A stretch of 64,000 nucleotides of DNA, taken from the IMG/VR virus record IMGVR_UViG_3300044655_001017, one strand, 5' to 3'. Of this stretch, positions 59,253 to 59,368 are shown piece after piece. Numbering within the stretch: the first letter of the stretch is position 1; each line of letters starts with the position of its first letter. Origin of the DNA: a virus. Lineage: Duplodnaviria > Caudoviricetes. Below the pieces are notes generated by a model that was given only the letters and a program-made list of their open reading frames with translations, searched no databases and had not been told where the DNA came from. The position numbers and the translations under genes are program-made.

Positions 59253-59267
59253 AAGGAGGTAATAGAT

Positions 59268-59342
59268 ATGAAATGGGAAACACCAACATATGTTGATTTA
59301 CGTTTTGGCTTTGAAGTCACTATGTATATTTACAATCGTTAA
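59268..59342 (+). CDS. pqqA: PQQ precursor peptide PqqA (24 aa), not in ORF track
   Basis: [24 protein letters not shown] with the conserved E-V-T-M-Y (ExxxY) core; AGGAGGT SD at 59254-59260; terminator directly after. Confidence 0.92.
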   Translation: [24 protein letters not shown]

Positions 59343-59368
59343 GAAAAGGGCTTTTTAGCCCTTTTCTT
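59341..59368. terminator. bidirectional intrinsic terminator
   Basis: AAGAAAAGGGCT-TTTT-AGCCCTTTTCTT between convergent genes. Confidence 0.9.

Follow-up and report, generated by a model that had tools for sequence, protein, structure and literature searches.

The 64,000-nucleotide stretch of Caudoviricetes DNA analysed here (IMG/VR record IMGVR_UViG_3300044655_001017; hereafter the window) carries at positions 59268..59342, on the + strand, a gene whose predicted product is a genuine PqqA, the precursor peptide of the cofactor PQQ, and this gene resides in a true phage, not in a chimera. We consider it quite probable, judging from the sequence comparisons below, that the phage pqqA is an auxiliary gene that feeds a consumable PQQ precursor to the enzymes of the host and so sustains methanol oxidation. 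Viral pqqA is a kind of gene that is already known, and this phage adds a member to it.

Identity of the peptide and organization of the locus

The gene consists of 24 codons and a stop, with its ATG at 59268, and its product carries the two residues that are cross-linked in PqqA, Glu16 and Tyr20, in the arrangement E-x-x-x-Y. The product matches the family models of both Pfam (PF08042, 42.8 bits, E = 4.6e-11, cut-off 21.1) and NCBIfam (equivalog TIGR02107, 44.8 bits, E = 7.4e-12, cut-off 20), with scores about twice the curated cut-offs, which bears out the PqqA identity that an earlier note on this DNA had proposed and suggested checking against PF08042. The shortness of the peptide (24 aa, in a class of about 20-40 aa) and the conserved Glu-x-x-x-Tyr are likewise features of the family; association with pqqBCDE, a further feature, is not seen for the phage gene. 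In PQQ synthesis, PqqE together with its chaperone PqqD cross-links the Glu and the Tyr as the first step towards PQQ (PMC10906245).

The same note had described a 24-codon gene with a Shine-Dalgarno sequence and a terminator at 59254-59368, and the open reading frame, the Shine-Dalgarno sequence and a hairpin could all be located. By sequence inspection the Shine-Dalgarno sequence AAGGAGGT occupies 59253..59260 (+), with a spacing of 8 nt between GGAGG and the ATG, and an AGGAG-type site also precedes pqqA in the relatives and at most viral pqqA loci. Immediately upstream lies a gene for a 96-aa PAAR-repeat protein of the spike-tip type (58962..59252, +; PF05488, 43.5 bits, cut-off 27), which scores 69.8 bits against the NCBIfam T6SS PAAR domain, under the cut-off of that model. 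Its stop codon is the TAA at 59250-59252, the pqqA ATG follows 15 nt further on, and no terminator was predicted between the two genes. The PAAR gene is itself linked, via overlapping stops and starts, to a glutaredoxin gene on the same strand, which lies about 280 nt downstream of nrdB; the gene that overlaps the PAAR start spans 58456..58962 (+), with the ATG at 58456 as its probable start and a single TATAAATA before it at 58444-58451. A T4-type late promoter is not supported at this site: TATAAATA is not enriched in the window (6 occurrences against 10.4 expected by chance, with the copy at 58444 the sole one near pqqA), and the motif is therefore no evidence for the late timing that the earlier note had proposed. 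A scan of the region for sigma-70 promoters gave background levels.

On its downstream side the gene runs into a hairpin with a 12-bp stem and a 4-nt loop (59341..59368), which overlaps the pqqA stop codon and has T-rich runs on either side. The 51 nt around the stem fold at -20.7 kcal/mol (z = -5.8), a stability reached by 0/200 shuffled sequences, and the stem is kept in the relatives, where changes are confined to the loop. The hairpin is situated between convergent genes and is probably a bidirectional intrinsic terminator that serves both of them; it was overlooked by a simple terminator scan because its T run belongs to the stem, and its comparison with Rfam returned a chance match only. 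The convergent partner, which forms the right border of the pqqA unit, is a 290-aa gene from the list of open reading frames (59380..60252, -) with no family in Pfam, PHROG or NCBIfam. In the viral relatives L012, L097, L072 and G001, conservation covers the first ~30 codons of this gene (about 60225-60252) together with the DNA beyond, and the larger part of the gene is matched in L087 only.

Residence in a phage genome and conservation among relatives

The window has a GC content of about 36% and three tRNA genes, and its genes include nrdA, nrdB, glutaredoxin, a virion structural protein (phrog_1645), a depolymerase-like tail protein, lysozymes and many that are unmatched. The unit of pqqA and hairpin recurs in five IMG/VR contigs from different samples. 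The PAAR gene precedes pqqA in L012, L072, L096/G002 and G007 and probably in L087; the PAAR end is clearly shared in L012/G001, L072, L096/G002 and G007, L087 has an identical pqqA and hairpin preceded by an apparently diverged PAAR end, and in L097 pqqA is present behind a different upstream sequence. One of these relatives, G007, is a genome of 372,173 bp with direct terminal repeats, rated 100% complete, and another, G002, matches about 40 kb of the window (about 23,000-63,300) in collinear order, at roughly 55-92% amino-acid identity. The size of the one and the collinearity of the other indicate that the window derives from a jumbo phage of about 370 kb.

The earlier note had named a chimeric host fragment as the finding that would overturn its reading, and the assemblies speak against one: the junction is repeated in independent assemblies, and unitigs link pqqA to the PAAR gene. 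The stretch was found in nineteen lake-water metagenome runs, and unitigs of other lake runs bridge the junction between the PAAR gene and pqqA (X4 record 29, 59175-60050; X10 record 6, 59199-59328). Phage genes flank pqqA on both sides, the PAAR gene upstream and conserved phage genes downstream. Among GenBank phages, blastn returned no match to 57500-61500.

Within this group of relatives pqqA is strongly conserved. L012 and L087 share its nucleotide sequence exactly, and G001 has the same peptide; this identity is held although the PAAR flanks of L012 and G001 are only about 77% identical, and across the pqqA-bearing relatives the flanks show about 77-92% DNA identity. The core of the gene in L072, L097 and L096 differs at 2-8 of 66 nt, and changes in the peptide among relatives are restricted to positions 7, 9, 11 and 22. 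The closest cellular genes among the matches listed share only 49-59 of the 66 core nucleotides with the phage gene, whose GC3 is 0.23 against a cellular mean of 0.46. The low nucleotide identity to cellular genes and the low GC3 imply that pqqA is a long-resident gene of the phage and not a fresh capture.

Absence of the other PQQ genes

As the earlier note had stated, the window holds no pqqBCDE: tblastn detected no homologue of PqqB, PqqC, PqqD or PqqE in it, and the check for other pqq genes in the complete relative G007 was also null, with no PqqE, PqqD, PqqC or PQQ_2-type dehydrogenase found there. The PqqC search recovered its target in three candidate host genomes, which served as a control. 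Among the matches listed, the tblastn search for PqqB/C/D/E gave none near pqqA in 118 of 118 viral loci, and the same search gave a match at 70 of 120 cellular pqqA loci. Methanol dehydrogenase (PQQ_2-type) was absent from the ten pqqA-bearing viral records that were searched.

The lack of pqqBCDE neighbours is not disqualifying, as orphan extra copies of pqqA are normal in methylotrophs. The Methylophilaceae have 3-12 copies of pqqA alongside single-copy pqqBCDEFG (PMC4109929), and our pattern scan of cellular genomes found tandem pqqA copies at Methylophaga loci. The phage gene resembles these copies in being an extra pqqA that stands alone, apart from the single-copy pqqBCDEFG, an arrangement in which the dosage of the precursor is amplified; the copies of methylotrophs are chromosomal, however, whereas the one described here is brought in by a virus. 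The more usual cellular copy heads pqqBCDE, while the phage copy follows a PAAR gene, has no pqqBCDE beside it and is shifted towards AT; the two are alike in length, in the E-x-x-x-Y motif and in the HMM families to which they belong.

Distribution of pqqA among viruses

A degenerate DNA pattern scan of IMG/VR found pqqA in at least 118 contigs. The matches listed comprise 70 distinct core peptides; all but two of these matches have an ATG one or two codons before the tryptophan, and nearly all have a ribosome-binding site. We also searched GenBank phages (50,697 records) with two tblastn queries, and pqqA occurred only in methylotroph phages, in one uncultured Caudoviricetes and in two mislabelled bacterial contigs. 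The methylotroph phages are Melnitz (four records), Venkman, MEP301, MEP401/402 and P19250A, making up nine records of cultured Methylophilales phages, and every isolate-phage peptide passes PF08042. The gene is annotated at none (0/5) of the isolate phage loci inspected. In Melnitz (MZ577097.1), for instance, pqqA lies at 76134-76205 (+), a 'hypothetical protein' has been called across it on the opposite strand, and genes for tRNA-Leu and the gp5 baseplate hub adjoin; in the paper describing Melnitz, PQQ appears only as a supplement of the medium. The two mislabelled records are matches to 'Acinetobacter phage MD-2021a' (e.g. CAKLQF020000010.1), which we rejected because they are apparently bacterial contigs with ppk and a full pqqABCDE.

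More distant jumbo relatives (L007, L034 and L083) carry a Methylophilaceae-like allele of the WTTP-S type in the same general region, and the type of the peptide may follow the host, as far as the alleles themselves suggest. A separate observation concerns pqqA of an enterobacterial type (WKKPAFIDMRLGLEVTLYISNR and similar) in L024, L037, L064, L076, L078, L090 and L103. In these IMG/VR contigs, which are about 8-41 kb long, 300-450 nt separate the gene from the contig end, with no pqqB detected downstream, and tblastn found no gene of this type among GenBank phages; each may be either the edge of a provirus or a true phage gene, and for the former reason they were set aside.

The earlier note implied that pqqA was new as a phage gene, but viral PqqA has been in print since 2020, when it was described in a virus population of Methylophilaceae from Lake Baikal, one in which methanol dehydrogenase is encoded too, with the same interpretation as ours (Coutinho et al., PMC7678222). 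The gene is also listed among virus-encoded genes in a 2026 study of reservoir sediment (PMC13188868), and the pmoC-phage paper (Chen et al. 2020, PMC7674155) enters a PqqA family for a single genome in one of its supplementary tables, with no discussion of it. The interpretation offered in that note thus holds as regards a PqqA, a true phage, an orphan gene and a Methylococcales-like core, and fails as regards novelty. The Baikal population VP_266 (PMC7678222) and the present phage both bear an orphan pqqA that is read as helping a freshwater methylotroph host to oxidize methanol; VP_266, assigned to Methylophilaceae, encodes methanol dehydrogenase as well, whereas the lineage studied here has a Methylococcales-type peptide and pmoC in its relatives.

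Host type and association with pmoC

To place the peptide among cellular homologs we used a degenerate DNA pattern scan of one genome per prokaryotic species, in which closest means closest among the matches listed; the patterns fix W, P, D, G, E, V, T and Y, and conservation of those residues in the matches therefore proves nothing. Among the matches listed, the core is identical at 21 of 22 residues to those of Cycloclasticus, a Piscirickettsiaceae MAG and Methylococcaceae UBA975, and at 20 of 22 to those of many Methylococcales (Methylobacter, Methylomonas, Methylovulum, Crenothrix, Methylomicrobium and a Bathymodiolus methanotrophic symbiont). The earlier note had taken the ending to be most like Methylococcales PqqA, and among the matches listed the MYIYNR-type core is indeed closest to Methylococcales and Cycloclasticus.

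A second indication of the host comes from pmoC, for which a check of the full genome had been suggested and which proved to be present in close relatives: pmoC occurs in G002, G003, G007 and G008 (about 400 bits to the AmoC family in G002 and G003), and none was found in the window or in G001. The PmoC of G002/G007 is 87% identical to that of Crenothrix sp. D3, 84% to Methylomicrobium lacus, 83% to Methylobacter psychrophilus and 58% to Cycloclasticus. Because of the 22 core residues and the pmoC of the relatives, the likeliest host of this freshwater-lake phage appears to be a freshwater methanotroph of the Methylomonadaceae type (Crenothrix, Methylobacter or Methylomicrobium-like). The phage may belong to the pmoC-phage lineage, which is marked by large genomes that encode pmoC without pmoA or pmoB.

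In some viruses the two genes are close together, with pmoC directly upstream of pqqA in L013, L106, L062 and L079 and 2 kb away in L023. A general pmoC-pqqA cassette was rejected, as pqqA lies within 10 kb at only 4 of 80 viral pmoC loci. Only one of five near-complete pmoC phages has pqqA; the four without it are 98-100% complete and 162-175 kb in size, which implies that pqqA is not required for that lifestyle.

Two further observations were made on viral pmoC. L062 and L079 have, upstream of a pqqA of a different type, a divergent pmoC/amoC-like gene that is 45-47% identical to the PmoC of G002/G003. At five IMG/VR pmoC loci (L265, L266, L273, L275 and L276) the match to the 250-aa PmoC covers 996-1008 nt, not 750, so that an insert of about 250 nt interrupts pmoC there.

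Proposed role of the phage PqqA

We propose that the 24-residue peptide would be handed to the PQQ enzymes of the host; as the phage has no other PQQ genes, judging by the complete relative G007, only host enzymes could process it. PqqD and PqqE would make the cross-link between Glu16 and Tyr20, after which PQQ would be completed by a protease together with PqqB and PqqC. In such a scheme one peptide would be spent per PQQ, while the enzymes would turn over many times. If the phage shuts down host transcription, the supply of PqqA would be cut while the PQQ enzymes persist, and a phage pqqA with a strong ribosome-binding site would restore that supply, so that methanol dehydrogenase would keep its cofactor. 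Since a peptide is consumed for each PQQ and the enzymes are reused, the phage copy would keep the supply of PQQ going; the scheme assumes that an infected cell makes only as much PQQ as its supply of PqqA allows. Where pmoC is also present, pmoC would support the step from methane to methanol and pqqA the step from methanol to formaldehyde, two successive steps. We infer that the gene is expressed, that host enzymes process its product and that the phage benefits. A comparison can be made with the pmoC of pmoC-phages (PMC7674155) and with cyanophage psbA, phage genes for single parts of the host's energy machinery that turn over fast, in which, as here, one component of a multi-gene pathway is carried and the rest belongs to the host; PqqA differs from both in being a consumed substrate and not an enzyme subunit.

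RNA data came from one lake metatranscriptome, X20. In it, contigs of a cellular-type pqqA reached about 1768x, while contigs exactly matching phage genes stood at 2-3x. These pqqA contigs match the conserved core only (window 59306-59342), with 2-3 mismatches and with flanks unlike those of the phage, and this points to cellular messages at very high abundance. When RNA runs were searched with the pqqA gene alone, none was listed.

The most serious alternative is that pqqA is a neutral passenger, a real gene of host origin that persists without benefit as a 'pseudo-AMG'. So small a gene costs the phage little, pqqA is absent from four complete pmoC phages of smaller size, and the sole RNA run with matches gave only the cellular-type core. 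Against this, the gene has retained both a ribosome-binding site and a terminator of its own in relatives with flanks diverged to about 77-92% DNA identity, its composition matches that of the phage, and the gene recurs in several unrelated methylotroph phage lineages and at least 118 viral contigs; we regard this alternative as unlikely. Less likely again is a decoy or some other role, in which the peptide would occupy host PqqD/PqqE or another target and modulate PQQ synthesis, or would serve an unrelated phage function. RiPP precursor-like peptides can act as competitive ligands of their chaperones, which lends a decoy some plausibility, but a decoy would have no need of both cross-link residues or of a core identical to host substrates at 20-21 of 22 positions (among the matches listed), and lineage partners such as pmoC boost the same pathway and do not block it. 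That the locus is host DNA misassembled onto phage DNA, or the edge of a provirus, is extremely improbable: some enterobacterial-type IMG/VR matches do sit close to the end of their contig, at a few hundred bases or less, and the two GenBank 'Acinetobacter phage' records really are bacterial contigs with pqqBCDE, but the present junction recurs in independent IMG/VR assemblies (with a diverged PAAR end in L087), including a complete genome with terminal repeats, and it is bridged by unitigs of other lake runs, has phage genes on both sides and has a phage-like GC3.

Returning to the supply of a precursor to host enzymes, we can ask how widely that role extends. It is conceivable, though we would put it at slightly below an even chance, that pqqA is a convergently acquired and overlooked hallmark of methylotroph and methanotroph phages, with a pmoC-pqqA cassette in some of them and a peptide type that tracks the host. 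The gene is missed by gene callers because it has only 23-25 codons. If the hallmark reading is true, it is the supply of the precursor peptide, and not the PQQ enzymes, that would fail first in an infected cell, and the match of peptide to host would show in the Methylococcales type of this phage and the Methylophilaceae type of related jumbo phages.

Methanotrophs and methylotrophs govern the escape of methane and methanol from lakes and oceans, and their methanol dehydrogenases require PQQ; a phage with both pmoC and a PQQ precursor would tune two successive steps of methane oxidation during infection. The interest of the gene rests mainly on its systematic oversight and on its link with pmoC. 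Standard gene calling misses pqqA, and among the genomes of the pmoC-phage study just one had it called; surveys of viral auxiliary genes therefore undercount it. Cultured pairs of host and phage with a phage pqqA exist, namely OM43 with Melnitz or Venkman; PQQ is a routine supplement in the culture of these OM43 hosts and could hide an effect of pqqA.

Other genes in the window

Several other genes of the window have matches of note. The gene at 39403-40623 (-) encodes a 5-aminolevulinate synthase (TIGR01821, 563.8 bits, cut-off 338.6), which makes the haem precursor by the glycine/succinyl-CoA route. Between nrdA and nrdB (55058-55609, +, and 54363-55061, +) there is a weak match to an Fe/Mn superoxide-dismutase-like gene (83 bits, far under the cut-off), and the gene beside it has a marginal match to an HNH endonuclease. 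A group of host-like genes at 34215-38774 and 60599-61147 comprises an NAD-dependent epimerase, a PG-binding SLT lysozyme, a YqgE/AlgH-like gene, a non-specific endonuclease, a class 3 lipase and an RlpA-like DPBB lytic transglycosylase. A 433-aa protein encoded at 61842-63143 (+) contains long collagen-like G-x-x repeats (GDTGxxGxxG), has repeat-rich counterparts in G002 and is probably a tail fibre.
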